Shown here in pieces: positions 16,086 to 38,124 of a stretch of DNA of 64,000 nt (position 1 is its first letter; every line of letters begins with the position of its first letter). A program made the position numbers and the translations under genes. The stretch is from positions 1-64,000 of the forward strand of contig JBMFOB010000004.1 of assembly GCA_049969855.1 (NCBI GenBank), in the 5' to 3' direction. The stretch comes from Candidatus Bathyarchaeia archaeon (GTDB lineage Archaea > Thermoproteota > Bathyarchaeia > Bathyarchaeales > Bathycorpusculaceae). The notes under the pieces were generated by a model. It did not search any database, was not told where the DNA came from, and saw only the letters and a list, made by a program, of their open reading frames with translations.

Positions 16086-17462
16086 TTATATGACTATTAT
16101 GACTGAAATGTCATTCACATTTGTGCCTGTTTGACCAGTAAAAATTAGGTCTTCAAGTTTGGAGAAGAAATTGTAGGAGTCATTTTCGGCAAGATATTCC
16201 TCTGGAGTTAATCCCTCCTTAGCTGCTTTCGTTAATGTTTTTCCGTCAACTATTGCCCCTGCAGCATCTGTTGGGCCATCTATGCCATCCGTGCTTATTG
16301 AAGCCAAAACCGCTCCATCCATTCCATTCATTTTTAATGCCGCCGCCAAGGCTATTTCCTGGTTTCTTCCTCCTTTACCCTTTCCAATAATGGTTACTGT
16401 GGTTTCTCCCCCAGCAATTATGCCTGCTGGTTTTGGGATGGGATTTCCGGAAACAGAAACTTCATGGGCTATTGAGGCAAGCATGGTTCCAACGTGTCTG
16501 GCTTCGCCTTCTAATGTTGCGGTCAGCAAAAGCGTGTTTAATCCTTCAGATTTTAGGCATTCTTGGGCTGTTTTGCTTGCAAGCCTGTTGTTTCCAATAA
16601 TTACGTTGAAGACTTTCTTGAAGGCTTCATCATTGGCTTTTGGTGTTTCCGGAATTTTGCCTTTCTCTCCTTCTAAAAGAACCTTTCTGATTGATGTCGG
16701 AATTTTATCCCACAACCCGTATTTTTTCAAAACTTTTATTGCATCGCTGAAGGTTGTGGAATCTGGAACGGTTGGTCCTGATGCGATAAAATCTAATGGG
16801 TCGCCAACAACATCTGAGAGAATGAGATTTAGAATAGTGGCTGGATAAGCCTTTTTTGCCAACCAACCTCCCTTGAAATCCGATATGTTCTTTCTGACAG
16901 TGTTAATCTCATTTATTGTTGCACCGCATTTTAGCAAGGCATCCGTTATTTTCTTTTTATCATTGATTGTTATGTCGCCGCGGGGCAAGGGCATGAGGCT
17001 TGAACCCCCGCCAGAAATTAAACAAATGATTAAATCGTTTTCTCCGGCGTTTTCTGCTATTTCCAGCATGCGTCGAGTTCCTTCCACACCTGAATCATCT
17101 GGGATTGGGTGGCTTGCTTCATGAAGCTTTATAATGTCTGTTTTGTGTTTACTGCCGTAAGGAACGTTAACTAACCCCATCCTTATTATGCGTCCTAAAA
17201 CCTGTTCCAAAGCTTCAGCCATTGAACCGCTTGCCTTGCCGCCACCTATAACGTAAACGTTCCTGAACTTCTTTAAATCAAAGGAATATTTATCCACATG
17301 AAGGGTTGAGTTTTTCAATAAAACTTTTGATTTTATTATCTGTTTTGGGTCAACAGCATTCAGCGCAGATTCAAGGCTTTTTAGTGCTAGTTCTCTGGCT
17401 TTTCTGTTAAGTTGCGTCTCGCCATTATCTATTAGTTTTTCTTTATTCTTTATTGTTATCAT
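16086..17462 (-). CDS. gck: Glycerate 2-kinase (MOFRL family)
   Basis: GGGKAS, HPIPD, LISGGGS, KGG, SDVVGD, GGETTV, GGRNQE, TDGIDG, TGTNVND. Confidence 0.95.
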   Translation of the reverse strand: MITIKNKEKLIDNGETQLNRKARELALKSLESALNAVDPKQIIKSKVLLKNSTLHVDKYSFDLKKFRNVYVIGGGKASGSMAEALEQVLGRIIRMGLVNVPYGSKHKTDIIKLHEASHPIPDDSGVEGTRRMLEIAENAGENDLIICLISGGGSSLMPLPRGDITINDKKKITDALLKCGATINEINTVRKNISDFKGGWLAKKAYPATILNLILSDVVGDPLDFIASGPTVPDSTTFSDAIKVLKKYGLWDKIPTSIRKVLLEGEKGKIPETPKANDEAFKKVFNVIIGNNRLASKTAQECLKSEGLNTLLLTATLEGEARHVGTMLASIAHEVSVSGNPIPKPAGIIAGGETTVTIIGKGKGGRNQEIALAAALKMNGMDGAVLASISTDGIDGPTDAAGAIVDGKTLTKAAKEGLTPEEYLAENDSYNFFSKLEDLIFTGQTGTNVNDISVIIVI

Positions 17463-17559
17463 TTGATTGCCCTAACATTGATTTTTTATGGTTAACTGCG
17501 TAATTGTAATAAGCTAATATTAATAAAGAATTCCACAAATCTTTGTTCGGTGAGTCCAA

Positions 17560-18561
17560 ATGCCAAAACCAAAAGTTTATGTTACACGTGAACTTCCAGA
17601 AAGGGGTCTTAAAATAATTAAGGAGCATTTTGACACTGAAGTTTGGCCAGAATATGCTCCACCGCCAAAAAAGGTGATAATTGAAAAAGCTAGAAAGGTT
17701 GACGCCCTTGCCACGCTTTTGTCTGACAAAATAGACGCTGAGGTTTTTGATGCTGCGCCAAAACTTAAGATTGTTGCTCAGATGGCTGTTGGCTTTGACA
17801 ACATAGACATTCCAGAAGCCACGAAAAGAGGAATATATGTAACGAACACTCCGGAGGTTTTAACCGACACAACAGCAGATTTCGCTTGGGCTTTGTTATT
17901 GGCTGTTGCTAGGCGTGTTGTTGAAGCAGACAAGTATGTTCGCAGTGGACAGTGGAAGGTTGGTTGGCATCCTATGATGATGCAGGGCAGAGACGTTCAC
18001 GGCGCAACATTAGGCGTTGTTGGTGCTGGGAGAATAGGCTTTGCAGTTGCAAAAAGAGCCACGGGTTTTGATATGAAAATCCTCTTTTACGATGTTGTAC
18101 CCCGACCAGAAATGGAAAAATTAGGCGCAAAAAAAGTTGACATGGACACCCTTCTAAGAGAATCAGATTTCATCACCATTCACGTTCCGCTGATGAAAGA
18201 AACCTATCACCTAATAAATGAAGAGAAGCTTAAACTTATGAAGAAAACCGCTTATCTAATAAACAACTCCCGTGGACCGGTTGTGGACGAGAAAGCATTA
18301 TACCATGCATTAAAAGAAGGTAGAATAGCTGGCGCTGCCCTTGACGTTTTTGAACAGGAACCAACACCCATGGATAATCCTTTACTAAAACTTGACAATG
18401 TGGTTGTTGCTCCGCATATATCTAGTGCAAGCTATGAAACTCGCTCTAGAATGGCTGAGATGGTTGCAGAAAATTTGGTGGCGTTCTTTGAAGGGAAAAA
18501 ACCTCCGAACCTAGTTAACCCAGAAGTAATGAAAGTTAGACCATTGCAAAAGCAATTTTAA
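17560..18561 (+). CDS. gyaR: Glyoxylate/hydroxypyruvate reductase (D-2-hydroxyacid dehydrogenase)
   Basis: AVGFDNID, TNTPEVLT, GAGRIG, NNSRG, LDVFEQEP, PHISSA. Confidence 0.93.
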   Translation: MPKPKVYVTRELPERGLKIIKEHFDTEVWPEYAPPPKKVIIEKARKVDALATLLSDKIDAEVFDAAPKLKIVAQMAVGFDNIDIPEATKRGIYVTNTPEVLTDTTADFAWALLLAVARRVVEADKYVRSGQWKVGWHPMMMQGRDVHGATLGVVGAGRIGFAVAKRATGFDMKILFYDVVPRPEMEKLGAKKVDMDTLLRESDFITIHVPLMKETYHLINEEKLKLMKKTAYLINNSRGPVVDEKALYHALKEGRIAGAALDVFEQEPTPMDNPLLKLDNVVVAPHISSASYETRSRMAEMVAENLVAFFEGKKPPNLVNPEVMKVRPLQKQF

Positions 18562-18648
18562 CATGGATTTAAGGTCAATTTTAGTGCAATAGTTAAATAT
18601 TCCTTGTTTTTACCTTTCTTTTTCTCTTCAAAACAAAAGGTGATTTGA

Positions 18649-19821
18649 GTGAGTTCCATCTTTGCGAAGAGAATGGAAACTTTAGGAACAGAAACAGCCT
18701 TTGAAGTGCTTGCAAAAGCAAAAGCCTTGGAAAAACAGGGAAAAGACATTGTGCATTTAGAAATAGGCGAACCAGATTTTGACACGCCTAAGAACATTAA
18801 AGAAGCCGCCGTGAAAGCCCTCTATGAAGGTTACACCCATTATGTTCCATCCGCTGGAATCCCAGAGCTAAGAGAAACAATTGCCGAGTACATTTCTAAA
18901 ACAAGAAGAATAAAGGTTGAACCTGAAGAGGTTGTTGTAACACCAGGCGCAAAACCAATAATGTTTTTCGCCATTCTTGCATGCGTGAATCCCGGCGAGG
19001 AGGTTTTGTATCCAAACCCAGGCTTTCCAATTTATGAATCTGTCATAAATTTTGTTGAAGCCAAACCTGTGCCTATACCGCTTTTGGAAGAAAATGATTT
19101 TAGAATGGATCATGAATATGTTAAGAAGAAGATAACAAAAAAGACTAAAATGATTATTCTGAACTCTCCGGAAAACCCAACTGGCGGCGTTTTGACTAAG
19201 GAAGACTTGAAAGTTATAGCTGATTGCATTTCAAATAGAGATGATGTGCTTGTGCTTTCCGACGAAATATATAGCAGAATAATTTATGAGGGCGAGCATG
19301 AAAGCATCGCTTCGCTTCCAGGGATGAAGGAGAAAACGATTATACTGGATGGATTTTCAAAAACCTATGCCATGACAGGTTGGAGACTTGGCTATGGCGT
19401 AATGCGAAAAGATTTAGCCCAAAAATTCGCCCAACTCATGACCAACTCCAACTCTTGCACATGCACTTTCATTCAGATGGCTGGCATTGAGGCTTTGAAA
19501 GGACCGCAAAATGAAGTAGAAAGGATGGTTTCTGAATTTAGAAAAAGAAGGGAAGTTATAGTTTCTGGTTTAAACAAGATTAAGGGAATAACATGCAAAA
19601 AACCCCGCGGAGCCTTCTATGTATTTCCCAACATAAAAGGAACTGGGATGGACTGTCGCAAACTTGGAGATTACTTGCTTAATGAAGCTGGTGTGGCTGT
19701 TTTACCAGGCACATCCTTCGGAAAATACGGTGAAGGCTATTTGCGTTTGTCCTTTGCCAATTCTATTGAGAATATTAAAAAGGCTTTGGACAGAATATCT
19801 AAGGCTCTTGAAAAACGATAA
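18649..19821 (+). CDS. Class I/II PLP aminotransferase (aspartate aminotransferase-like)
   Basis: IGEPDF, NSPENPTG, SDEIY, GFSKTYAMTGWRLGY, GAFY, YLRLS. Confidence 0.93.
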   Translation: MSSIFAKRMETLGTETAFEVLAKAKALEKQGKDIVHLEIGEPDFDTPKNIKEAAVKALYEGYTHYVPSAGIPELRETIAEYISKTRRIKVEPEEVVVTPGAKPIMFFAILACVNPGEEVLYPNPGFPIYESVINFVEAKPVPIPLLEENDFRMDHEYVKKKITKKTKMIILNSPENPTGGVLTKEDLKVIADCISNRDDVLVLSDEIYSRIIYEGEHESIASLPGMKEKTIILDGFSKTYAMTGWRLGYGVMRKDLAQKFAQLMTNSNSCTCTFIQMAGIEALKGPQNEVERMVSEFRKRREVIVSGLNKIKGITCKKPRGAFYVFPNIKGTGMDCRKLGDYLLNEAGVAVLPGTSFGKYGEGYLRLSFANSIENIKKALDRISKALEKR

Positions 19822-25390: not shown

Positions 25391-28300
25391 TTGTTAAAAT
25401 TTAAGGGGAATTTTTTGTCCTCTCGTGAATCTCTACAAAGCGGTAGATACGTTACTCTCAAAAAATTAGGAGAAGGCGGGAAAGGCATCGTATATAAGGC
25501 TAGAGACACTGCTTTGAACCGTATTGTTGCAATTAAGATGCTTAAAAGTGCAGTTTTAACTGAAGAGGCCTATTCCCGTTTTATGCGGGAAGCGCAGGCG
25601 GTAGCGAAACTTAATCATCCAAATATTGTTTCAATACATGACATCGGCAAAGAAGATGGAAAACAATTTTTTGTCCTCGAGTTTGTTGATGGAATGAGTC
25701 TACGCGAGCTTATGGGAACATATCCAGAAGGCAAATGCGACATAAAAACTGTCCTAAGAATAGGCATAGATGTTTGCTCTGCGCTTCAGTATGCGCATTC
25801 TCAAAACATTCTCCATCGAGACATTAAACCTGAAAACATCATGATCACACAGGAAGGCAATGTGAAACTGATGGATTTCGGTTTGGCAAAAATGCTGGGG
25901 CAGCCTAGGATAACGCAAGAAGGAGTAATAGTGGGCACAGTTGCCTATGTTGCGCCTGAAGTAGCATTAGGAAAAGGTGCTGACGCAAGATCTGACCTTT
26001 ACTCCCTTGGTGCAGTACTTTATGAAGCTGTCACTGGAAGACCACCTTTCATAGGCGAAGACTCCGTAAAAATTATCTTCAGTCACATTCATGACTACCC
26101 AATTTCGCCGAACAAGCTGAATTCGAAGGTTCCGCAGGCTTTGGCAGAGTGTATCATGAAGCTTCTGGAAAAGGAGCCAACGAAAAGATATCAGAGTGCA
26201 GCGGATTTGCTTAATGTGCTAAGAGAAATAGCTGAAGGCTTCTTAAGGGAGGTTTATGTTCCTTCTCATAAAACAAGCGTTGTGGTTCCACCTCAACGTC
26301 CTTTTGCTATGCGAGAGACTCAGCTTATCGATAGAGTTGAAGAGATGAATTTTCTCAGAGAGACTGTTGATAGGGCAGTGCGTCGTGAAGGTGGCCTTGT
26401 TTTTCTTTGTGGGGAGGCTGGAATTGGAAAGACAAGGTTAACTAGGGAACTAGACGCTTATGCACGCTTGCGTGGAATGCAAGTTTTATACGGAAGGTGT
26501 CCAGCGTTGTTCAGAATGGATGGTGTGCCTCCTTATGTTCTGTGGAATGAGGTGATAAAAGATTATTTGCAAGTCTGCACTCCTGAGCAGTTGTATAAAG
26601 TGATTGGTTTCTATCCGAGCGAGGTTTGTAAGTTAGTTCCAGAAATCAGGCAGAAGCTTGGTACAATTCCTCAGTCTCTACCTATAAGTCCAGAGCAGGA
26701 GCGTGACAGACTTTTTGAAGCGGTTTCCCAGTTCATGATTAACCTTTCTAAAGAGACTCCTTTGCTGATTATTCTTGATGATTTGCAATGGACTGATCAG
26801 TCCTCGCTTTTGTTACTGCATTATTTGGCTCGGGGTGTTTACCGTGAGCCTTTGCTACTTTTGGGTGCGTACCGTGACACTGACATTGACGAACGGCATC
26901 CTTTGTCTCCTGTTTTGACAGAATTGAATAGGGAACGTTTGCTTCAATCCGCTCAATTGAAACGCATGTCTTTCAACGATGTTCAGGAGATGATTAAGCA
27001 GATTTTGGACCAAGACGATGTTCCAAGAGAGTTTTGTGAACTTGTTTATGAGAAAACGAGGGGTAATCCCTTCTTTGTTGAAGAAGTGATAAAGTCTCTC
27101 AAGGAAGAAGAGGTTATCTTTCGTGAGGAGAATCGTTGGAAAATTAAGGAAGTTTCTAAAATTGAATTTCCTAAGACTGTTAAGAGTATTATAAAGGCGA
27201 GAATAAGTCGGCTTGATGAGGACTGCCAGAATATTTTGACTTTAGCTTCTTTTGTTGGGAACGATTTCTCTTTTGAAGCAATATGTGGGGTCATCAATAT
27301 TGAAGAGAATAAATTGCTTGAGCTGATGGAGAAGTTGCTTAAAACTGGACTGGTTAAGGAGAGGGTTGTTCGCGGAGAAGATGTTTATTATTTTGCTGAT
27401 GTGATAGTGAGGGATGTTGTGCACGAGGAAGTTAGCCATTTAAGGCATAAGAAACTTCACAGTAGTGTTGGTAACGCCTTAGAGAAGGTTTACGCTAAAA
27501 AGATTGACGAACACTTTGGCGAGCTTGCATATCATTTTCTCGAAGGCAGTGACAAAGAAAAGGCACTTGATTATTTCTTGAAAGCAGGAGAAAAAGCACA
27601 GACAGTATATGCCCACAATGAAGCCTTATCTTATCTCCAACATGCGCTTGAACTGCTTAAAGAGAAGAGGGCCAGCCCAGAACAAAAGGTTCCCGTAGTT
27701 GAGAAACTCGGTGACCTTAACTATTGGATAGGAAAGCCTGATGCTGGAATGGAATACTATGGCAAAGCGTTGACTTTGTGGGATCAGCTTGAAGACAAGA
27801 AGAATATCGCAAGGCTCCATACTAGAATGGCATTGATGCTTTGGCACGGATTGGGTGACAAGGTTAAAGCTTCCGAACATCATCATATGGCTTTGGAGAT
27901 ACTTGAGAAAGAACCCGAAAGCGTGGAGTTGGCTAGCTTGTACGAAGATGTTTCACACATGCTTTGGCGAACTGGCAAATCTGATGAAGCCTTGATTTGG
28001 ACACAGAAAGCCCTTGCACTGGCAGAGAAATTAAACGCCCCCGACGTTATAGCACGTTGTTACAACAATCTAGGCGTGCTTAAACTGAAGTCTGGAGAAT
28101 TCGACAAGGCTGCAGAATACCTTAGGCAAGGATTAAAAATAGACCTTGAGAACAAACTTCTAGGTGATGCTCTCACCTTTTACAATAACCTCTGCACCCT
28201 TTACCTCTCGACAGGAGAATTTCAGAAGTTGTTCGAGACTGCCCAAGAAGGCTCCGATATGGCCAAGAAAGTTGGTGCTTTGTATCCCTTGGCTTGGCTT

Positions 28301-29074
28301 GATATGATGCTGTGTGCTTCTTATGGATACAGGGGAGACCTGCAAAAAGCCCTTTCCCTAGCTGAGGACAATCTCGCATTGGTCAAGCGAATCAAATATA
28401 CAGCTTTTATAGGAAGCGCATTGGGTACACTTGGCACATGTTACCGTTATCTTGGAGAATGGGATAAGAGCCTTAATTACTTTAAGGAGTCCTTTGACCT
28501 TGCTAGGGAAGCTGGAGAGTATCAAGAAACTGGAAATGCCGCCTCAGAGCTTGGAATGCTATATATGGAAATGGAAGACTACGATGAAGCTGAGAAATAC
28601 CTCAATGAAAGCGACAGCATTTTTGAGAAAGCAGGAGATACAGACAGTCAAATGACTACGCCACTACCAGCTCTTTCAAGACTATATTTGGAAAAAGGTG
28701 AAGTCGATAAAGCCACAGCTCTAATTGAGAAAATCTACGAATATGCAACAAAAGCCAAAAATCGATTGGCTATGTGTGATGCTGAGTTGTTGAAAGCAAT
28801 GCTTTTTAGGGAAAAGAAAAGCTGGGGGCAATCTATACAGCACTTTGAGAAAAGCCTTCAGGAAGCCAAATCCCTAAATATCCAAAATTGGCATGTCTTC
28901 CAATACGCAGAAATCCTATATGAATACGGTTTAATGTACCTCGAAAGAAACGAAGAAGGCGATAAAGAAAAGGCCTACTCGCTTCTCGATCAAGCTCTGA
29001 TGATATACCAGAAAGCCGATGCGAAAAAGAGAATAGAAAAGGTAATAGCGAAAAAGAAACTGCTCACGGCTTAG
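25391..29074 (+). CDS. Ser/Thr protein kinase - STAND (AAA_16) ATPase - TPR multidomain protein
   Basis: Kinase GEGGKG/VAIK/HRDIKPEN/DFG/APE; Walker A GEAGIGKT, Walker B LIILDDLQW, GNPFF; C-terminal TPRs; likely start TTG 25415. Confidence 0.92.
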   Translation: MLKFKGNFLSSRESLQSGRYVTLKKLGEGGKGIVYKARDTALNRIVAIKMLKSAVLTEEAYSRFMREAQAVAKLNHPNIVSIHDIGKEDGKQFFVLEFVDGMSLRELMGTYPEGKCDIKTVLRIGIDVCSALQYAHSQNILHRDIKPENIMITQEGNVKLMDFGLAKMLGQPRITQEGVIVGTVAYVAPEVALGKGADARSDLYSLGAVLYEAVTGRPPFIGEDSVKIIFSHIHDYPISPNKLNSKVPQALAECIMKLLEKEPTKRYQSAADLLNVLREIAEGFLREVYVPSHKTSVVVPPQRPFAMRETQLIDRVEEMNFLRETVDRAVRREGGLVFLCGEAGIGKTRLTRELDAYARLRGMQVLYGRCPALFRMDGVPPYVLWNEVIKDYLQVCTPEQLYKVIGFYPSEVCKLVPEIRQKLGTIPQSLPISPEQERDRLFEAVSQFMINLSKETPLLIILDDLQWTDQSSLLLLHYLARGVYREPLLLLGAYRDTDIDERHPLSPVLTELNRERLLQSAQLKRMSFNDVQEMIKQILDQDDVPREFCELVYEKTRGNPFFVEEVIKSLKEEEVIFREENRWKIKEVSKIEFPKTVKSIIKARISRLDEDCQNILTLASFVGNDFSFEAICGVINIEENKLLELMEKLLKTGLVKERVVRGEDVYYFADVIVRDVVHEEVSHLRHKKLHSSVGNALEKVYAKKIDEHFGELAYHFLEGSDKEKALDYFLKAGEKAQTVYAHNEALSYLQHALELLKEKRASPEQKVPVVEKLGDLNYWIGKPDAGMEYYGKALTLWDQLEDKKNIARLHTRMALMLWHGLGDKVKASEHHHMALEILEKEPESVELASLYEDVSHMLWRTGKSDEALIWTQKALALAEKLNAPDVIARCYNNLGVLKLKSGEFDKAAEYLRQGLKIDLENKLLGDALTFYNNLCTLYLSTGEFQKLFETAQEGSDMAKKVGALYPLAWLDMMLCASYGYRGDLQKALSLAEDNLALVKRIKYTAFIGSALGTLGTCYRYLGEWDKSLNYFKESFDLAREAGEYQETGNAASELGMLYMEMEDYDEAEKYLNESDSIFEKAGDTDSQMTTPLPALSRLYLEKGEVDKATALIEKIYEYATKAKNRLAMCDAELLKAMLFREKKSWGQSIQHFEKSLQEAKSLNIQNWHVFQYAEILYEYGLMYLERNEEGDKEKAYSLLDQALMIYQKADAKKRIEKVIAKKKLLTA

Positions 29075-32058: not shown

Positions 32059-32682
32059 TTAAATGGTTGGAAAAGTGTTTAAACTTTTGATTCTGTTTAG
32101 GAATTCCTCCATTTCTTTTTCCACTTCTTCCTTTCTCTTCGTCAAAAACTCTAACTCCTCAGATATTTCGTCTAACCATTCTTTCATGGCTAAATTGCAT
32201 TCTTCCCGTGTCATTTTTGCAAGATATTTGGAAACATCTTCTGGATTGCGTTTTCTTAACAAGCGAAGGGGACAATTTATTCTTTGAAATTTTGAAAAAG
32301 AGAAGAAATGTCTGGTTGAACGTGGCTTCATGAGACGTCCACTAAGCCCTGCTGAGAGAACCTTATCAACGGTTATTTCTTCGTCGGGATTGCCTATGTA
32401 ACGGTGAATCCTTCTCCTTCCAACTCGTATTTTTGGATTTTGGAAGGCATCAACAAGTATGACTGGTATTAGTGTGTAGCCGAGGCTTTTTAAGGCGAGC
32501 CACCGGTGCATTCCGTCTAGGATTACATGGGTTTTTTCATCTGCTATTATTGGATACTTTAGTAAGCCGTCTCTAAGGATTTCTTGTTTAAGCAGTTCCA
32601 AATATAATGGAGAGCCTTTTTCGTGGGGTTTCAAAGAGTTTATTGGAAGCAAAACAATTTTTAAATCCTGTTTTTCCGTCAT
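32059..32682 (-). CDS. ParB/Srx-fold protein, SbnI/SerK-like (candidate free-serine kinase)
   Basis: L.PHE, I..DG....PI, VILDGMHRW.ALK.LG...IPV, GRLM.P.STRH; start ATG 32682. Confidence 0.7.
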   Translation of the reverse strand: MTEKQDLKIVLLPINSLKPHEKGSPLYLELLKQEILRDGLLKYPIIADEKTHVILDGMHRWLALKSLGYTLIPVILVDAFQNPKIRVGRRRIHRYIGNPDEEITVDKVLSAGLSGRLMKPRSTRHFFSFSKFQRINCPLRLLRKRNPEDVSKYLAKMTREECNLAMKEWLDEISEELEFLTKRKEEVEKEMEEFLNRIKSLNTFPTI

Positions 32683-32692
32683 GTGCTTTACC

Positions 32693-34048
32693 TTAGTGGC
32701 TAAAGGTTGAAACTTCGATTTTTTCAGGTTCATAATCTACCAGTTTGCCGCTGAGAAACTGCTCGTAAGCCGTTAGGTCAAGTAAGCCGTGTCCACTGTA
32801 ATTCATTGCAATTATTTTTTTCTCGCCTGTTTTCTTGCATTTTAGTGCTTCATCTATTACATATTTTAGGCTGTGGGCGGTTTCGGGAGCTATTATTAAT
32901 CCTTCTGTTTGGGCTAGAATCTTTGCGGCTTCGAAAACTTCATTTTGACTGTAAGCAACAGAGCGCATATACCCCTTATATATTAGGTATGACATCAAAG
33001 GCGCCATCCCGTGATATCGCAATCCGCCAGCATGTATGGGTGGACAAGCATATCCATGTCCAATTGTTAACATTTTCAGAAGTGGCGTCATTTTGCCTGT
33101 GTCTCCATAATCGTATGTGTAGATGCCTCTTGTTGTGTGGGGAACGGCTTTTGATTCGCAAGCAACAAATTCTGTTTTTGTTTTGCCTTTGAGCTTGTCC
33201 ATCATGAAGGGGAATGCGAAGCCTGCATAGTTTGAGCCTCCGCCTATGCATCCGCAAATTATGTTTGGGTAAATGTCCATAAGTTCGAATTGTTTTTTTG
33301 CTTCTAAGCCTACTATTGTTTGGTGCATGAGAACGTGATTCAGCACGGAGCCTAAAGAGTACCGTGTATCTTCGTTTGTAAGCGCATCTTCAATGGCTTC
33401 TGTGATGGCTATTCCCAAAGTTCCAGGATTGTCTGGGTTTTCTTTGAGCAGTTTTCTGCCGAAATTTGTTTGTTCGCTTGGTGATGGGAACATTTCTGCG
33501 CCGTAAATCTGTGCTATGATTCTTCTGCCTGGCTTTTGGTAATAGCTTGTTTTAACCATGTAGATTCGGCATTTCAGTCCGAAAATGGTGCATGAAAAGG
33601 CTAGGGCTGTGCCCCACTGTCCTGCTCCGGTTTCAGTCACTAGTCTTTTGATTCCTTGTTGTTTGTTGTAGTAGGCTTGTGCAAGGGCGGTATTAGTTTT
33701 GTGGCTTCCTGTTGGGCTGAAGTTTTCGCATTTGAAGTATATCTGGGCTGGTGTTTTCAAATAATTTTCTAGGCGTTTTGCTCTGTAAAGTGGTGTTGGA
33801 CGTGGAAGCCTTAGGTATGCATCGAGTATTTCATCCGGTATTTTTATGTAGCGTTCTGTGGAAACTTCTTGTTTTATGAGTTCTTTTGCGAATATTCTCT
33901 CAAGTAGTTGTGGGCTTATGGGTTTTAGGGTTGTTGGGTCCAATGGTGGTGGTAATGGTTCTGGGAGATCTGCTTGGATATTGTACCATTCTCTGGGTAT
34001 TTCTTCGGGATTTAACTGTGTGAAGCTTTCATTAATTTTTGAATGCAT
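32693..34048 (-). CDS. trpB2: Tryptophan synthase beta, TrpB2 type
   Basis: IPREWYNI, RPTPLYRA, GSHKTN (PLP Lys), TETGAGQWG, LGSVLNHV, GGGSN, HAGGLRYHG, APET.H, SGHG. Confidence 0.95.
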   Translation of the reverse strand: MHSKINESFTQLNPEEIPREWYNIQADLPEPLPPPLDPTTLKPISPQLLERIFAKELIKQEVSTERYIKIPDEILDAYLRLPRPTPLYRAKRLENYLKTPAQIYFKCENFSPTGSHKTNTALAQAYYNKQQGIKRLVTETGAGQWGTALAFSCTIFGLKCRIYMVKTSYYQKPGRRIIAQIYGAEMFPSPSEQTNFGRKLLKENPDNPGTLGIAITEAIEDALTNEDTRYSLGSVLNHVLMHQTIVGLEAKKQFELMDIYPNIICGCIGGGSNYAGFAFPFMMDKLKGKTKTEFVACESKAVPHTTRGIYTYDYGDTGKMTPLLKMLTIGHGYACPPIHAGGLRYHGMAPLMSYLIYKGYMRSVAYSQNEVFEAAKILAQTEGLIIAPETAHSLKYVIDEALKCKKTGEKKIIAMNYSGHGLLDLTAYEQFLSGKLVDYEPEKIEVSTFSH

Positions 34049-34161
34049 ACAGATGTCCCCTTATGTATATTTTTGTTCATTTGCGTATGATATTATACTC
34101 AAGACAACACGAACATATTTATACTTTACTGCACAAAAAAGTACATGAAGGAATCTGTAAC

Positions 34162-34665
34162 ATGTGGAGCAAAATTGCAAAATGCCTAGAAGACTATCCA
34201 GAACGGCTCAAAGTAGCTCGAGTTCTCGTAGAAAATGGACTGAGCGTGAGAAACGGAAAAATCTATCTTAACGAAATTGAAGTTCCACCGGTTCGCATAG
34301 CAAGAGTTGCTGGAGTAGACAGAAGAACAGTGAACGAGACGCTGAATGCTATCCGCACAAACCGCGAACTTAAGCCAATTTTTGAAGGGTTAAGGTCTGC
34401 TGGGCATTCTTTAAAGGAGATTGCTAAACATTTGGATTTGGGAGTTGTTGAAATAACTCCTGTTGATGCACGAATTCCGGGCATACTTGCAAGCTCCGCC
34501 TCAATTCTTGCGAATGCTGGTTTGAGTATAAGGCAGGCGATAGTTGATGATCCAGAGTTGTCGCCTGAGCCTAAATTAACTTTGATTGTTGAGAGAAAAA
34601 TTCCAGGCGAATTGATTCCAGAATTTCTAAAAATAAAGGGAGTGGCTAAAGTTTCAATTTATTAA
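34162..34665 (+). CDS. ACT-domain regulator of amino-acid metabolism (COG2150-like)
   Basis: MW..I...YP..VAR..GL, IARVAGVDRRTV HTH, C-terminal ACT (PGILA...SIRQAI.DDP); start ATG 34162. Confidence 0.85.
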   Translation: MWSKIAKCLEDYPERLKVARVLVENGLSVRNGKIYLNEIEVPPVRIARVAGVDRRTVNETLNAIRTNRELKPIFEGLRSAGHSLKEIAKHLDLGVVEITPVDARIPGILASSASILANAGLSIRQAIVDDPELSPEPKLTLIVERKIPGELIPEFLKIKGVAKVSIY

Positions 34666-34749: not shown

Positions 34750-36732
34750 ATGCCTAGGATAGGCGTTTATGTTTGCCACTGCGGTTTGAACATAGCTGGA
34801 GTTGTTGATGTAGAGAAGGTGGCTAATTATGCTGAGAAGTTGCCAGATGTTGTGGTGGCTAGGCATTATGTTTACATGTGTTCTGAAACTGGACAGCGCA
34901 TGATAAAAGAAGACATTAAAGCGCATAACCTTAACCGAATAGTTATCGCCACATGCTCGCCGAGAATGCATGAAGAAACTTTCCGCAGAACCGTTGCTGA
35001 GGCAGGCTTAAACCCTTACCTTCTTGAAATCGTCAATTTGAGAGAACATGTCTCTTGGGTTCACAGCGAAGAGCCAGAAAAAGCAACGGAAAAAGCTAAA
35101 GACCTTGTGAAGATGGGCGTAGCACGTGTTAAACTTTTGGAGCCTTTGGAAAAGCGAAGGGTTAGCGTGGAGAAAAGTGTTTTAGTTGTCGGCGGCGGGA
35201 TTGCTGGGATACAGGCTTCGTTGGATTTGGCTGATGCTGGTTTTAGAGTTTATCTTGTTGAGAAGGCGCCTAGCATTGGCGGGCGCATGGCACAGTTGGA
35301 CAAGACTTTTCCAACCCTTGATTGTAGTGCTTGCATTCTCACTCCTAAAATGGTTGATGTTGCAAGACACCCAAAAATAACATTGTTGACGAATTCTGAG
35401 GTTACAAATGTTAGTGGGTTTGTTGGAAATTATGAAGTTTCAGTTGTAAAGAAGCCCCGTTATGTGGATGAGAAAAAATGTGTTGGTTGCGAACTATGCA
35501 CTCAAGTTTGTCCAGTTAAGGTTCCAGACGAATTTAATGAAGGCTTAAGCCAAACACGCGCAATATCAGTTTATTCTCCCTATGCCGTGCCAAAAGTAGC
35601 CATAATAAACCCAAACCATTGCCTAAGACTGAAATATGATAAAGATGTTTGCGGTAAATGCTTAAACGCATGTGAAGCAAAAGCCATAAACTTTGCACAG
35701 CAACCAGAAGAACTTAGGCTTAAAGTGGGCGCCATAATCTTGGCTGTTGGAGCGGAAGTTTTTGACGCTTCTAAAATGCCAGAGTTAGGATATAAACGAT
35801 ACAAGAATGTAATATCCAACATAGAATTTGAAAGGATTTTGAATGCTTCTGGACCTACTAAAGGAGAAATTTGCCGCCAAAACGGCGAGCCTCCGAAAAC
35901 TATCGTTTTTGTTCAATGTGTGGGTTCCAGAGACAAACGTTTTCATGAATATTGCTGTCGTGTAGGGTGTATGGCAACTTTAAAACAAGCAATTCTTGTT
36001 CAAGAAAGGTTAGGAGAAAACGTGAAAATTTATGTTTGCTTTAATGATATGCGTGCTTTTGGCAAGGGATATGATGAGTTTTATAGACGAGCAAGAGAGT
36101 TAGACATAGAATTTGTTGCAGGGTTGCCATCAGACATTCGAAGCGCTTCGGACGGTTCACTTTACTTTGATGTTTACGATAAAGGAACAAACAAGCTTTT
36201 GGAAATGCGACCAGACTTAATTGTTCTAGCGAACGGATTAGTTCCAAACAGCGACCTTGAAAAAGTAAGCGCCCTATTCCATGTCTCAAGGAGCGCCGAT
36301 GGTTTTCTTTTAGAGGCACATCCAAAACTGCGACCTCTAGAGAGTTTGACAGCTGGAATTTTCATTGCGGGTTCTTGTCAAGGACCTAAGGATATACCAG
36401 ACACTGTTGCCCAAGCCAGCGGGGCAGCAGCAAAAGTAATCGACCTTTTGGCGAGTGGGGTAATTGAGCTTGAGCCTTTAACAGCGGTTATTGATAAGAA
36501 CTTATGCAGTGGTTGTCAAGTTTGTGAGCCGCTTTGTCCGTTTTTTGCGATAGAAATGAAAACGGAAACCGTGGAAGGTGTGGAAAAAGTTAAAGCGGAA
36601 ATTATTGAAGCCATGTGTCAAGGCTGTGGTCTCTGCGTTTCAGCATGTCCCACCAAAGCAATCAAAATGCGGCATTATAATGATGAGCAATTTCTGGCGC
36701 AAGTTCAAGCATGCTGTTCTGAAAGGAGGTAA
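34750..36732 (+). CDS. hdrA: Heterodisulfide reductase subunit A (flavin-based electron-bifurcating subunit)
   Basis: RIGVYVCHCG.NI, CSPR.HE, GGGIAG, DKTFPTLDC..CI, QCVGSR, CCRVGC, EAHPKL, two ferredoxin domains. Confidence 0.96.
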   Translation: MPRIGVYVCHCGLNIAGVVDVEKVANYAEKLPDVVVARHYVYMCSETGQRMIKEDIKAHNLNRIVIATCSPRMHEETFRRTVAEAGLNPYLLEIVNLREHVSWVHSEEPEKATEKAKDLVKMGVARVKLLEPLEKRRVSVEKSVLVVGGGIAGIQASLDLADAGFRVYLVEKAPSIGGRMAQLDKTFPTLDCSACILTPKMVDVARHPKITLLTNSEVTNVSGFVGNYEVSVVKKPRYVDEKKCVGCELCTQVCPVKVPDEFNEGLSQTRAISVYSPYAVPKVAIINPNHCLRLKYDKDVCGKCLNACEAKAINFAQQPEELRLKVGAIILAVGAEVFDASKMPELGYKRYKNVISNIEFERILNASGPTKGEICRQNGEPPKTIVFVQCVGSRDKRFHEYCCRVGCMATLKQAILVQERLGENVKIYVCFNDMRAFGKGYDEFYRRARELDIEFVAGLPSDIRSASDGSLYFDVYDKGTNKLLEMRPDLIVLANGLVPNSDLEKVSALFHVSRSADGFLLEAHPKLRPLESLTAGIFIAGSCQGPKDIPDTVAQASGAAAKVIDLLASGVIELEPLTAVIDKNLCSGCQVCEPLCPFFAIEMKTETVEGVEKVKAEIIEAMCQGCGLCVSACPTKAIKMRHYNDEQFLAQVQACCSERR

Positions 36733-37248
36733 TTGAGTATGGGTTTAACAGATTTAATGTCAATGGCTAAACCCAACATGGAAGTGCGTGAAAAATTTTT
36801 GTCAAAGCTTGGCAACAAAGAACTCATTAACTGTTTTCAATGTTTAAAATGCACCAGCGGATGCACAGCGTTAAAACTTTTAGAGTTGAAGCCTCATGAA
36901 ATAGTTAAACTTGTCAATTTTGGCTTTGTGGATGAATTGGCGTCGTCGGAAATAATTTGGACTTGTGTAACATGCCTAAAGTGTGTGCAAAGGTGCCCAC
37001 AGAAAGCCTCACCATACCACACGATAATGGTTCTTAGGAATATGGCTGTTGAAAAGGAAGTGCAGATACCTGAAGAATACTTGAAAGCTTTCTCAAGAAT
37101 TCTCGAAACAGGCTTGGCTGAAGCACCTCAAGAAGTCACGACAAAAAAGATGGAAGTTTTTGATCGTAAAAGTCTAAAGTTGCCAAAAATCAACCTTCCA
37201 AAGGAGAGTTTTCAAGCAGCGTTTATGAAAATTATGGAGGAGAAATAG
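36733..37248 (+). CDS. hdrC: Heterodisulfide reductase subunit C
   Basis: CFQCLKCTSGC and WTCVTCLKCVQRCP 2x[4Fe-4S] motifs. Confidence 0.9.
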   Translation: MSMGLTDLMSMAKPNMEVREKFLSKLGNKELINCFQCLKCTSGCTALKLLELKPHEIVKLVNFGFVDELASSEIIWTCVTCLKCVQRCPQKASPYHTIMVLRNMAVEKEVQIPEEYLKAFSRILETGLAEAPQEVTTKKMEVFDRKSLKLPKINLPKESFQAAFMKIMEEK

Positions 37249-38124
37249 GTGAAACTTGCTGTTTTCTGGGGCTGTCGCATATTAACAAGTCAGTACGCTT
37301 ATGAAATGTCTGTTCGAGAAGTTTTCAAAAAACTAAACATAGAACTTGTAGATCTATCCGAAGCTAATTGTTGTGGAGACCCGATAAAAAGCATAAAAGA
37401 CCCCGCAGCAAACTATTTAGCCATTAGAGTTTTAGCCCTAGCAAACTCGACAGGTTTAGATGGTTTGCTTGTGCCATGCAATCGTTGCCACTTTGCCATT
37501 TCAGAAGCAAAAAACGTTGCGAACAAAAACAAGAATCTTAACGAAAAAATCAAGGGCTTGCTGAAGGAAGAAGAATTAGAGTATAACGCTAACATTAAAA
37601 TTTGGCACATAATCGACTTTCTGCACGACTTTGTTGGCTTAGATTCTATTAAAAAAGCAACACAAAAGCCTCTTAAAGATTTGCGGTTGGCAACGCATGT
37701 TGGTTGCCAAATCATTCGTTACAGCGACCTTGGAAGGGTTGATGATGCGGAGAATCCTCGAAAACTTGATAAGTTAGTGGAGGTTCTTGGAGCGAAAACG
37801 GTGGATTACGCTGAAAAACTGGATTGTTGTGGTGCACCTTTAATGTATAGTCATCCCAGTTCTGCTCTTTCTCTTGCTGGCGCTAAAATTAAGGCTTTAA
37901 CGAGTTTGGGTGTTGACGGTTTGGTTATTTCTTGTCCCGATTGTGGTTTGATGTTTGATTTTAGGCAGAAGGATGCAGTGGCGACTGTTGGAGCAAAAGC
38001 CAGTCTTCCAGTGATTTATTATACGCAGCTTCTTGGTTTAGCCTTAAACATCGAAGCAGAAAAACTTGGTTTGCATCTTAACCAAAGCCCTGTGGAGCAA
38101 CTTTTAATGAAAATTTCTGCTTAA
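37249..38124 (+). CDS. hdrB: Heterodisulfide reductase subunit B
   Basis: Two CCG domains: WGC..NCCG..PCNRC and HVGC..DCCG..SCPDC.MFD. Confidence 0.92.
   Translation: MKLAVFWGCRILTSQYAYEMSVREVFKKLNIELVDLSEANCCGDPIKSIKDPAANYLAIRVLALANSTGLDGLLVPCNRCHFAISEAKNVANKNKNLNEKIKGLLKEEELEYNANIKIWHIIDFLHDFVGLDSIKKATQKPLKDLRLATHVGCQIIRYSDLGRVDDAENPRKLDKLVEVLGAKTVDYAEKLDCCGAPLMYSHPSSALSLAGAKIKALTSLGVDGLVISCPDCGLMFDFRQKDAVATVGAKASLPVIYYTQLLGLALNIEAEKLGLHLNQSPVEQLLMKISA

Follow-up and report, generated by a model that had tools for sequence, protein, structure and literature searches.

The first 64,000 nucleotides (nt) of contig C4 of a Candidatus Bathyarchaeia assembly (1.28 Mb, 93% complete, 3.8% contaminated; genome G000 below) form the window analysed here. 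It holds a trpB2 gene, a gene for a 207-residue protein of ParB/Srx-type fold close behind it on the same strand, and the regulator gene trpY, which diverges from trpB2 across a shared promoter region (Table 1). We find that this triad is conserved among related Bathyarchaeia and that the 207-residue protein resembles the free serine kinases SerK and SbnI in sequence and fold, and we propose that it may supply TrpB2 with O-phospho-L-serine for the salvage of indole.

The minus-strand open reading frame (ORF) 32059–32733 contains an internal ATG at 32682, from which translation gives 207 residues. Many close homologues, which are labelled Bathyarchaeia and in part Bathycorpusculaceae, start at the matching position and have the same length, so that 32059–32682 is the likely gene. 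The original prediction, made from the letters of the window, had placed this start 10 nt past the trpB2 stop codon, and the junction does read CAC TAA ggtaaagcac ATG ACG; in related loci the spacer between the two genes is mostly 8–50 nt (estimated). The motifs that had been named in the protein are all present, as PHEKG (with the glutamate at E21), DGMHR (56–60) and PRSTRH (120–125).

The assignment of the upstream gene to trpB2, with its AGGLRYHG motif, likewise holds. The 451-residue product scores over cut-off on PRK12391 (686 bits) and on TIGR01415 (674 bits against 518.85), while the trpB1 model TIGR00263 gives 153 bits against a cut-off of 392. It matches the solved TrpB2 chains of Sulfolobus solfataricus, which share the AGGLRYHG motif, with 467–493 bits (6hul_B 493, 4qys_B 468; also 6hte_B), as compared with at most 145 bits for TrpB1-type chains. 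The divergent gene, predicted to encode a helix–turn–helix (HTH)-ACT regulator, turned out to be specifically of the TrpY family: it scores 189.9 bits on NCBIfam NF053754 (TrpY_fam), against a cut-off of 180 and aligned over positions 1–163 of 163, with sub-threshold Pfam matches to HTH and ACT.

Table 1. Features of the window (PLP, pyridoxal phosphate)
Feature	Positions	Strand	Evidence
Putative free L-serine kinase, SerK/SbnI-like (ParB/Srx fold), 207 residues	32059..32682	-	ORF and start choice, family, fold
Spacer of 10 nt from trpB2 stop codon to kinase-like ATG, operon-type junction	32683..32692	-	Sequence
trpB2, stand-alone TrpB-like PLP enzyme, 451 residues, with AGGLRYHG	32693..34048	-	TIGR01415 and PRK12391 over cut-off
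Divergent promoter/operator region common to trpB2 and trpY	34049..34161	.	Conserved intergenic elements
trpY, TrpY-family HTH and ACT-like transcription regulator, 167 residues	34162..34665	+	NCBIfam NF053754
Glycerate 2-kinase-like gene	16086..17462	-	Below cut-off, 268.5/550 bits
Glyoxylate/hydroxypyruvate reductase	17560..18561	+	526 bits, over cut-off
Aminotransferase	18649..19821	+	Clustered within 16086..19821

Family and fold of the 207-residue protein

In Pfam the 207-residue protein matches ParB_N below threshold (18.9 bits against a cut-off of 26.3), and its top NCBIfam models are SerK (47.1 bits) and SbnI (33.7 bits), both matched over the N-terminal region only. Among PDB sequences, phmmer returned at E < 1e-4 only SbnI (1e-7), SerK (1.7e-6) and the Pyrococcus furiosus orthologue 1VK1, in alignments that pair LHE with PHE and DGVHR with DGMHR. 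Run over 1.84 billion cluster representatives, HMMER gave 1211 relatives at E ≤ 1e-3, eight of them at E ≤ 1e-30; matches in the ESM Atlas were Bathyarchaeota ‘hypothetical protein’ clusters only. A family profile was built from an alignment of 34 sequences, with relatives of ∼280 residues included as a bridge to SerK. It matched SerK residues 15–241 at E 1.7e-38 with all three motifs aligned, so that KPHEQ, DGHHRW and SPKTTRHVLPF of SerK pair with KPHEKG, DGMHRW and KPRSTRHFFSF of the window protein. The glutamate aligned with E21 is the catalytic E30 of SerK, because the PDB sequence of the ‘E30Q mutant’ reads KPHQQ at this place. All 34 aligned sequences share E21, D56, G57, R60, R124 and H125.

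The AlphaFold2 model of the protein (17-sequence alignment) has a mean predicted local distance difference test score (pLDDT) of 90.2 and a predicted template-modelling score (pTM) of 0.83. It ends in a long C-terminal helix, residues 159–202, that is specific to the clade and has no counterpart in SerK. In a Foldseek search of the PDB, ranks 1–9 are all SerK, PF0380 or SbnI (E 5e-9 to 1.2e-7), and Noc and ParB first appear at E 3.6e-4; the VIA structure comparison likewise ranks SerK, PF0380 and SbnI on top. The structural alignment to SerK-type entries reaches residues 1–146 of the model only, with 23–25% structure-based identity. The HTH and the above-cut-off family matches that mark a ParB/Noc CTPase clamp were not found: Pfam and NCBIfam detect no HTH or other DNA-binding family, TIGR00180 (parB_part) has no match at E ≤ 0.01, ParB_N stays below cut-off and the Noc model gives 15.9 bits against 315.

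This family and fold evidence places the protein in the serine-kinase branch of the ParB/Srx fold, as a shortened and divergent relative that is not an equivalog of either SerK or SbnI. Very probably it is a small-molecule kinase of the SerK type, as opposed to a partition ParB. The claim that it is not a partition protein is thereby supported. Compared with SbnI, SerK and ParB, it groups with SerK and SbnI by sequence and by fold, with these two the best matches in NCBIfam, PDB phmmer and Foldseek, and away from the DNA-binding ParB CTPases.

Among longer proteins (364–2000 residues) no fusion was found at E ≤ 1e-5, in a search that is weak as evidence. One protein of 266 residues, P0129, runs from a TrpB2 C-terminus into a ParB-like part and was considered as a Rosetta-stone fusion. 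It was rejected because decay or a frameshift seems to have affected its kinase-like part, which has LQE for PHE, then NGMHR, then unrelated sequence.

Conservation and distribution of the triad

Synteny was scanned in one genome per GTDB species, at 80 loci. Seven of these are distant (36–40% identity; Saccharibacteria, Mariniphaga, Woesearchaeota, Nanoarchaeota, Methanosarcinales) and 73 are Bathyarchaeia-type, with 64–95% identity for complete matches; the record titles of 72 of the 73 name Bathyarchaeia, Bathyarchaeota or an uncultured archaeon, and that of L057 a Candidatus Acidiferrales bacterium. Of the 72 loci that have 300 nt or more of upstream DNA, 71 carry trpB2 directly upstream of the 207-residue gene on the same strand. 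At the exception (L084) both genes are broken hits, still side by side. Divergence of trpY from trpB2 is seen at every related locus with enough DNA (60/60), as compared with a degT gene that adjoins in 44 of 65 loci, is displaced in eight and absent in 13. It is therefore the triad that is conserved as a unit, and not the wider neighbourhood. No trpB2 was found at the seven distant loci. The TrpB2 proteins form two lineages, 52–58% identical, type I like the copy of the window and type II at L018, L024, L025, L026 and L098; the 207-residue gene trails both, and GGLRYHG is kept in all copies. The adjacency is thus tighter than the surrounding synteny and spans two TrpB2 lineages.

Promoter elements were compared in 67 trpY–trpB2 intergenic regions (66 loci and the window), whose kinship inflates the counts. 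A B-recognition element (BRE)/TATA-like sequence, AAAGTATAAATA, lies at 34116–34127 (minus-strand reading) and is exact in 66 of the 67. A GTAC-core box adjoins trpY at 34141–34146, with a GTAC-core box near the trpY start in 61 of the 67 regions. Between the TATA element and the trpB2 start come two degenerate boxes with GAAC and ATAC cores, 34064–34069 and 34074–34079, at a distance of 10 bp; across the regions, boxes on the trpB2 side are spaced by 10 bp in 18 cases and by 20 bp in eight. The regions hold 143 copies of GTAC, where 22 would be expected and 200 shuffles gave at most 34, an excess that is again inflated by kinship. The GTAC-core boxes are candidate TRP boxes, for which the consensus is TGTACA. 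A 2008 study by Karr is said, by its title, to concern the regulation of trpB2 by TrpY. In its passages on TrpY, PMC6737238 describes repression of trp genes via TRP boxes in overlapping divergent promoters, and also a Thermococcus kodakarensis TrpY homologue that does not regulate trp genes, so that a trp-regulating function of the window TrpY is not guaranteed.

The class was sampled in 151 genomes, which are related to one another, and the counts are therefore descriptive, with no statistical test. We found trpB2 in 112 of them (105 over cut-off) and a SerK-like match at E ≤ 1e-10 in 76. An orthologue of the 207-residue protein (at least 56% identity) occurs in eight, namely G000, G008, G062, G072, G145, G065, G030 and G036, and adjoins trpB2 in all except G036, where the two fall on separate contigs. 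Of these eight genomes, one has trpA, as do 62 of the 143 others (63/151 in all). The one is G145, and its trpA adjoins a second trpB2 copy. In the family to which the window belongs, trpA is present in 13 of 15 other genomes, and both that are without it (G008, G072) carry the triad. Copies of trpB2 directly beside trpA were noted at G145:C3:69598-71612, G020:C2:44703-46699, G129:C17:13980-16162 and G060:C21:6521-8705. Since such neighbours occur in several Bathyarchaeia, two trpB2 contexts coexist in the class, one linked to trpA and one linked to the kinase-like gene or stand-alone.

The absence of trpA, first noted in the window, extends to the whole 1.28-Mb assembly of G000, in which trpA, trpB1, trpC and trpD all lack a match above cut-off and trpB2 is the sole trpB-type gene. 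The assembly yielded no second SerK-like gene. SerB gave sub-threshold hits only, and no match over cut-off was obtained for SepRS, CysK/M or SerC_1, the last a narrow model that is over cut-off in only four of 14 control genomes. By this inventory TrpB2 is the only recognisable phosphoserine consumer in G000, given an assembly that is 93% complete and models that are narrow for archaea. Two genes resemble phosphoglycerate dehydrogenase (PGDH), both sub-threshold on the PGDH model: one on contig C18 (311 bits), and one in the window that scores as a glyoxylate reductase and that, with the glycerate 2-kinase-like and aminotransferase genes clustered around it (Table 1), hints at a non-phosphorylated serine/glycerate route.

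Twenty other SerK-like loci of Bathyarchaeia were read, ten encoding a short form (∼145 residues) and ten a long form (∼290 residues). Five have the gene beside or fused to CysK/M (L099, L101, L107, L109; in L103 two SerK-like N-domains are fused with CysM), one beside SepCysS (L100), one between trpY and a type II trpB2 (L098) and three overlapping a MoaD/Urm1-like gene (L104–L106). The remaining ten have no evident link, with lysS at L094 and L095, uppP at L096, L097 and L102, and L108 and L110–L113 besides; at L113 a trpB2 lies 2.6 kb away. A further SerK-like/CysM fusion is P0147 of the protein library. CysK/M and SepCysS are both users of phosphoserine. These contexts suggest that kinases may supply phosphoserine for cysteine synthesis in Bathyarchaeia, and the paralogues that overlap MoaD/Urm1-like genes possibly serve a CysO/CysM-type route. 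Paralogues linked to CysK/M, SepCysS, MoaD/Urm1-like and MoeB/ThiF-like genes were seen in genomes G082, G097, G078, G145, G103, G099, G013, G135 and G073. In a quick maximum-likelihood tree the 207-residue group is one clade, with a Shimodaira–Hasegawa-like approximate likelihood ratio test (SH-aLRT) value of 99. The L098 protein falls in a different clade, and trpB2 has therefore gained SerK-like neighbours from two clades.

Downstream of the kinase-like gene lie genes for a DegT/DnrJ-type aminotransferase, a 459-residue CobW/HypB-like P-loop protein and a cyclophilin-like protein. Just beyond trpY, at 34750–38124 (+), three ORFs resemble HdrA, HdrC and HdrB of heterodisulfide reductase, by eye from their translations; an HdrA-like gene adjoins trpY in ∼25 related loci. 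Elsewhere in the window, a 1227-residue ORF at 25391–29074 (+) shows by eye a Ser/Thr protein-kinase-like N-terminus, an AAA/NACHT-like region and TPR-like repeats, and is probably a signalling protein of the type of signal transduction ATPases with numerous domains (STAND).

A candidate route for indole salvage and its alternatives

We consider it probable on balance that these genes form a TrpY-controlled, kinase-driven module for indole salvage. Every refuting condition of the original prediction that lends itself to computation spoke for that prediction. In the module, a nucleotide (ATP, ADP or another) would serve the 207-residue protein as phosphate donor for the conversion of free L-serine to O-phospho-L-serine, which TrpB2, presumably translated from the same transcript, would combine with indole to form L-tryptophan and inorganic phosphate (Pi). 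With a nucleoside triphosphate (NTP) as donor and the diphosphate (NDP) as product, the two steps would sum to Ser + indole + NTP -> Trp + NDP + Pi; nucleotide hydrolysis and the good leaving group would drive salvage even where indole is scarce. TrpY, acting at the shared promoter region with its GTAC-core repeats, would keep the operon repressed while tryptophan is abundant.

A wider reading, which could fall either way and which we advance tentatively, is that SerK-like ‘mini-kinases’ are a general, on-demand source of free O-phosphoserine in many archaea, each paralogue serving a single consumer (TrpB2, CysK/M or SepRS/SepCysS). The divergent trpY and trpB2–kinase pair would then be a self-contained, nucleotide-driven salvage cassette that replaced de novo tryptophan synthesis in some Bathyarchaeia, and would give the first in vivo-type evidence for phosphoserine as the physiological co-substrate of TrpB2.

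To our knowledge, it has been an open question, ever since a preference of TrpB2 for O-phosphoserine was reported, what this enzyme does in the cell and where its favoured co-substrate comes from. As a conserved operon of trpB2 and a serine-kinase-like gene with a tryptophan regulator, the triad makes this question directly testable on two small soluble proteins. If the salvage proposal is true, free serine kinases would reach beyond cysteine (SerK) and siderophores (SbnI) to aromatic amino-acid salvage, with a catalytic core of the family defined as ∼130–150 residues. Bathyarchaeia without trpA, trpC and trpD could then make tryptophan from environmental indole, and the labels ‘ParB N-terminal domain-containing protein’ and ‘hypothetical protein’ would have to be corrected in hundreds of database entries.

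Several observations weigh against this proposal. The equivalog cut-offs are missed (47.1 against 380 bits for SerK, NF053625; 33.7 against 350 bits for SbnI, NF033589). The ∼90-residue alpha/beta insert that SerK carries between its N-domain and the TRH motif is missing from the window protein, which thus lacks the C-terminal subdomain of the full two-domain SerK/SbnI architecture and, with it, any substrate-binding residues that this subdomain holds. In the quick tree, its nearest sister clade is neither SerK nor SbnI but an uncharacterised group with DGSHR/PRTTRH motifs (SH-aLRT 96), whose substrate need not be serine. The predicted adjacency of the two genes stands among related Bathyarchaeia and does not extend across the class, where a SerK-like gene adjoins trpB2 in eight of 112 trpB2-bearing genomes (seven of the 207-residue type, one of the short type); most TrpB2 enzymes therefore work without a neighbouring kinase. 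The 73 supporting loci are all Bathyarchaeia-type by match and not mutually independent. The linkage at L098 is a single case, and the protein there has PKSTWH, with Trp for the otherwise invariant Arg, as have the lysS- and uppP-linked SerK-like forms. As the assembly is 93% complete, the gene absences in G000 are provisional. Finally, given the narrow SerC_1 model and the PGDH-like gene on C18, the phosphorylated serine pathway may operate and provide phosphoserine without a kinase.

The alternatives differ in how well they fare with these data. The strongest, which we nevertheless hold to be unlikely, is a SerK-like small-molecule kinase with a substrate other than serine, such as another hydroxy-amino acid or an amino-alcohol, whose place beside trpB2 would reflect inherited gene order or other chemistry, for example an alternative beta-substituted donor for TrpB2. 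The missing middle subdomain and the low equivalog scores would fit such an enzyme, and so would the sister clade. That clade (36–40% identity; loci L087–L093, with L087:1720-4784, L088:3631-5974 and L091:4486-6600; proteins P0128, P0130 and P0135 among others) is hosted by candidate phyla radiation (CPR) bacteria, DPANN archaea, Bacteroidota and Methanosarcinales. A cytidylyltransferase-like domain (PF01467) is fused to 14 of 33 relatives scanned, and a cytidylyltransferase or NTP-transferase gene or fusion is present at five of the six distant loci scanned (of seven found), three of the five with CDP-alcohol phosphatidyltransferase genes and two with an Asp/Glu racemase; a methyltransferase occurs at four of the six. 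This layout suggests that in the sister clade a kinase product may be CDP-activated and then transferred, in the manner of the Kennedy pathway. Nevertheless, the His of the PHE motif is kept in the trpB2-linked clade, as in SerK and SbnI, and not in the sister clade. Around the 73 Bathyarchaeia-type loci no cytidylyltransferase or CDP-alcohol transferase was seen, a weak negative from a scan with seven window proteins only. Other SerK-like paralogues adjoin CysK/M and SepCysS, and the sole invariant partner of the 207-residue gene is TrpB2, an enzyme type described as O-phosphoserine dependent (Busch 2014, as cited in a passage of PMC11917138).

That the protein is mainly a regulatory or structural partner instead, either a transcription factor in the manner of SbnI or a subunit that replaces TrpA on TrpB2, allosterically or by docking, by means of its C-terminal helix, seems to us improbable. 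SbnI is described in NCBIfam as a bifunctional transcriptional regulator/O-phosphoserine synthase, the clade-specific helix 159–202 could be the docking element, and trpA is missing from seven of the eight genomes that carry the 207-residue gene. But the strict conservation of the catalytic-type motifs (E21, DGxHR, TRH) is unexpected in a purely structural protein, no DNA-binding family was detected in the 207-residue protein, and TrpY is already present as the putative regulator.

More improbable still is a reversed, phosphatase-like role, in which the protein would convert phosphoserine made by a phosphorylated serine pathway to serine, in place of SerB. G000 does lack a SerB over cut-off and does have PGDH-like genes, and a kinase-type replacement of SerB has been proposed, but for the unrelated DUF1015 ‘SerBK’, in a part of GapMind 2026 (PMC13759103) that also gives the reverse reaction as thermodynamically unfavourable. 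Such a role would leave the strict linkage to trpB2 and control by TrpY unexplained, and the glyoxylate reductase with the sub-cut-off glycerate 2-kinase-like gene points to a non-phosphorylated route to serine. That the gene encodes a usual partition protein, CTPase or nuclease of ParB type and adjoins trpB2 by chance is scarcely credible, for although homologues are annotated ‘ParB N-terminal domain-containing protein’ and the weak ParB_N match agrees with that label, there is neither an HTH nor a TIGR00180 match, and the position in an operon behind a metabolic gene is conserved.

Comparison with known systems

In the literature searched, outside which most subscription journals lie, we found no description of TrpB2 linked to a ParB-like protein or to a serine kinase. 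By term search, ‘tryptophan’ is absent from Makino 2016 (PMC5120207), and ‘TrpB’ and ‘ParB’ from GapMind 2026, whose serine-kinase passages concern the DUF1015-based idea; ‘tryptophan’ and ‘TrpB’ are also absent from the main text of a 2025 survey of the ParB-CTPase fold (PMC12704722). As far as this literature goes, the conserved pairing of TrpB2, TrpY and a kinase-like protein is previously undescribed.

A close known parallel to the proposed kinase is SerK of T. kodakarensis (TK0378; PDB 5X0B), with PF0380 (1VK1), an ADP-dependent kinase of free L-serine. The two proteins share the ParB/Srx-type N-domain, and PHE (E30), DGxHR and the C-terminal PK(T/S)TRH..PF of SerK align with the window protein. 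The proposed role is alike as well, since either enzyme would provide phosphoserine for a fold-type II PLP enzyme of beta-replacement. The window protein differs in its length (207 against 242 residues), in being without the ∼90-residue alpha/beta insert and in having an extra C-terminal helix of 44 residues, and its partner is TrpB2 where that of SerK is cysteine synthase. In its passages on SerK, Makino 2016 (PMC5120207) has the enzyme feed phosphoserine to cysteine synthesis and confines clear-cut homologues to four genera.

SbnI of Staphylococcus (5UJD, 5UJE, 6NR6), which phosphorylates free serine with ATP, acts as a regulator and supplies SbnA for staphyloferrin B synthesis, is the best single-sequence PDB match of the window protein. 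Its gene presumably adjoins that of the phosphoserine-using PLP enzyme that it serves. SbnI is set apart from the window protein by a larger C-terminal domain, a DNA-binding and regulatory role, and a bacterial, siderophore context.

As to control, the regulation of trpB2 by TrpY in Methanothermobacter thermautotrophicus likewise involves a regulator of the TrpY family, but in the window trpY diverges directly from trpB2 and not from trpEGCFBAD. For the enzyme itself the closest known systems are the O-phosphoserine-dependent TrpB2a and TrpB2i of S. solfataricus (4QYS, 6HTE, 6HUL), to which the window TrpB2 is tied by AGGLRYHG and by its high scores. No linked serine kinase turned up for these in the literature searched, whereas the trpB2 of the window has a kinase-like gene and trpY as partners, and is the sole tryptophan biosynthetic gene found in its genome.

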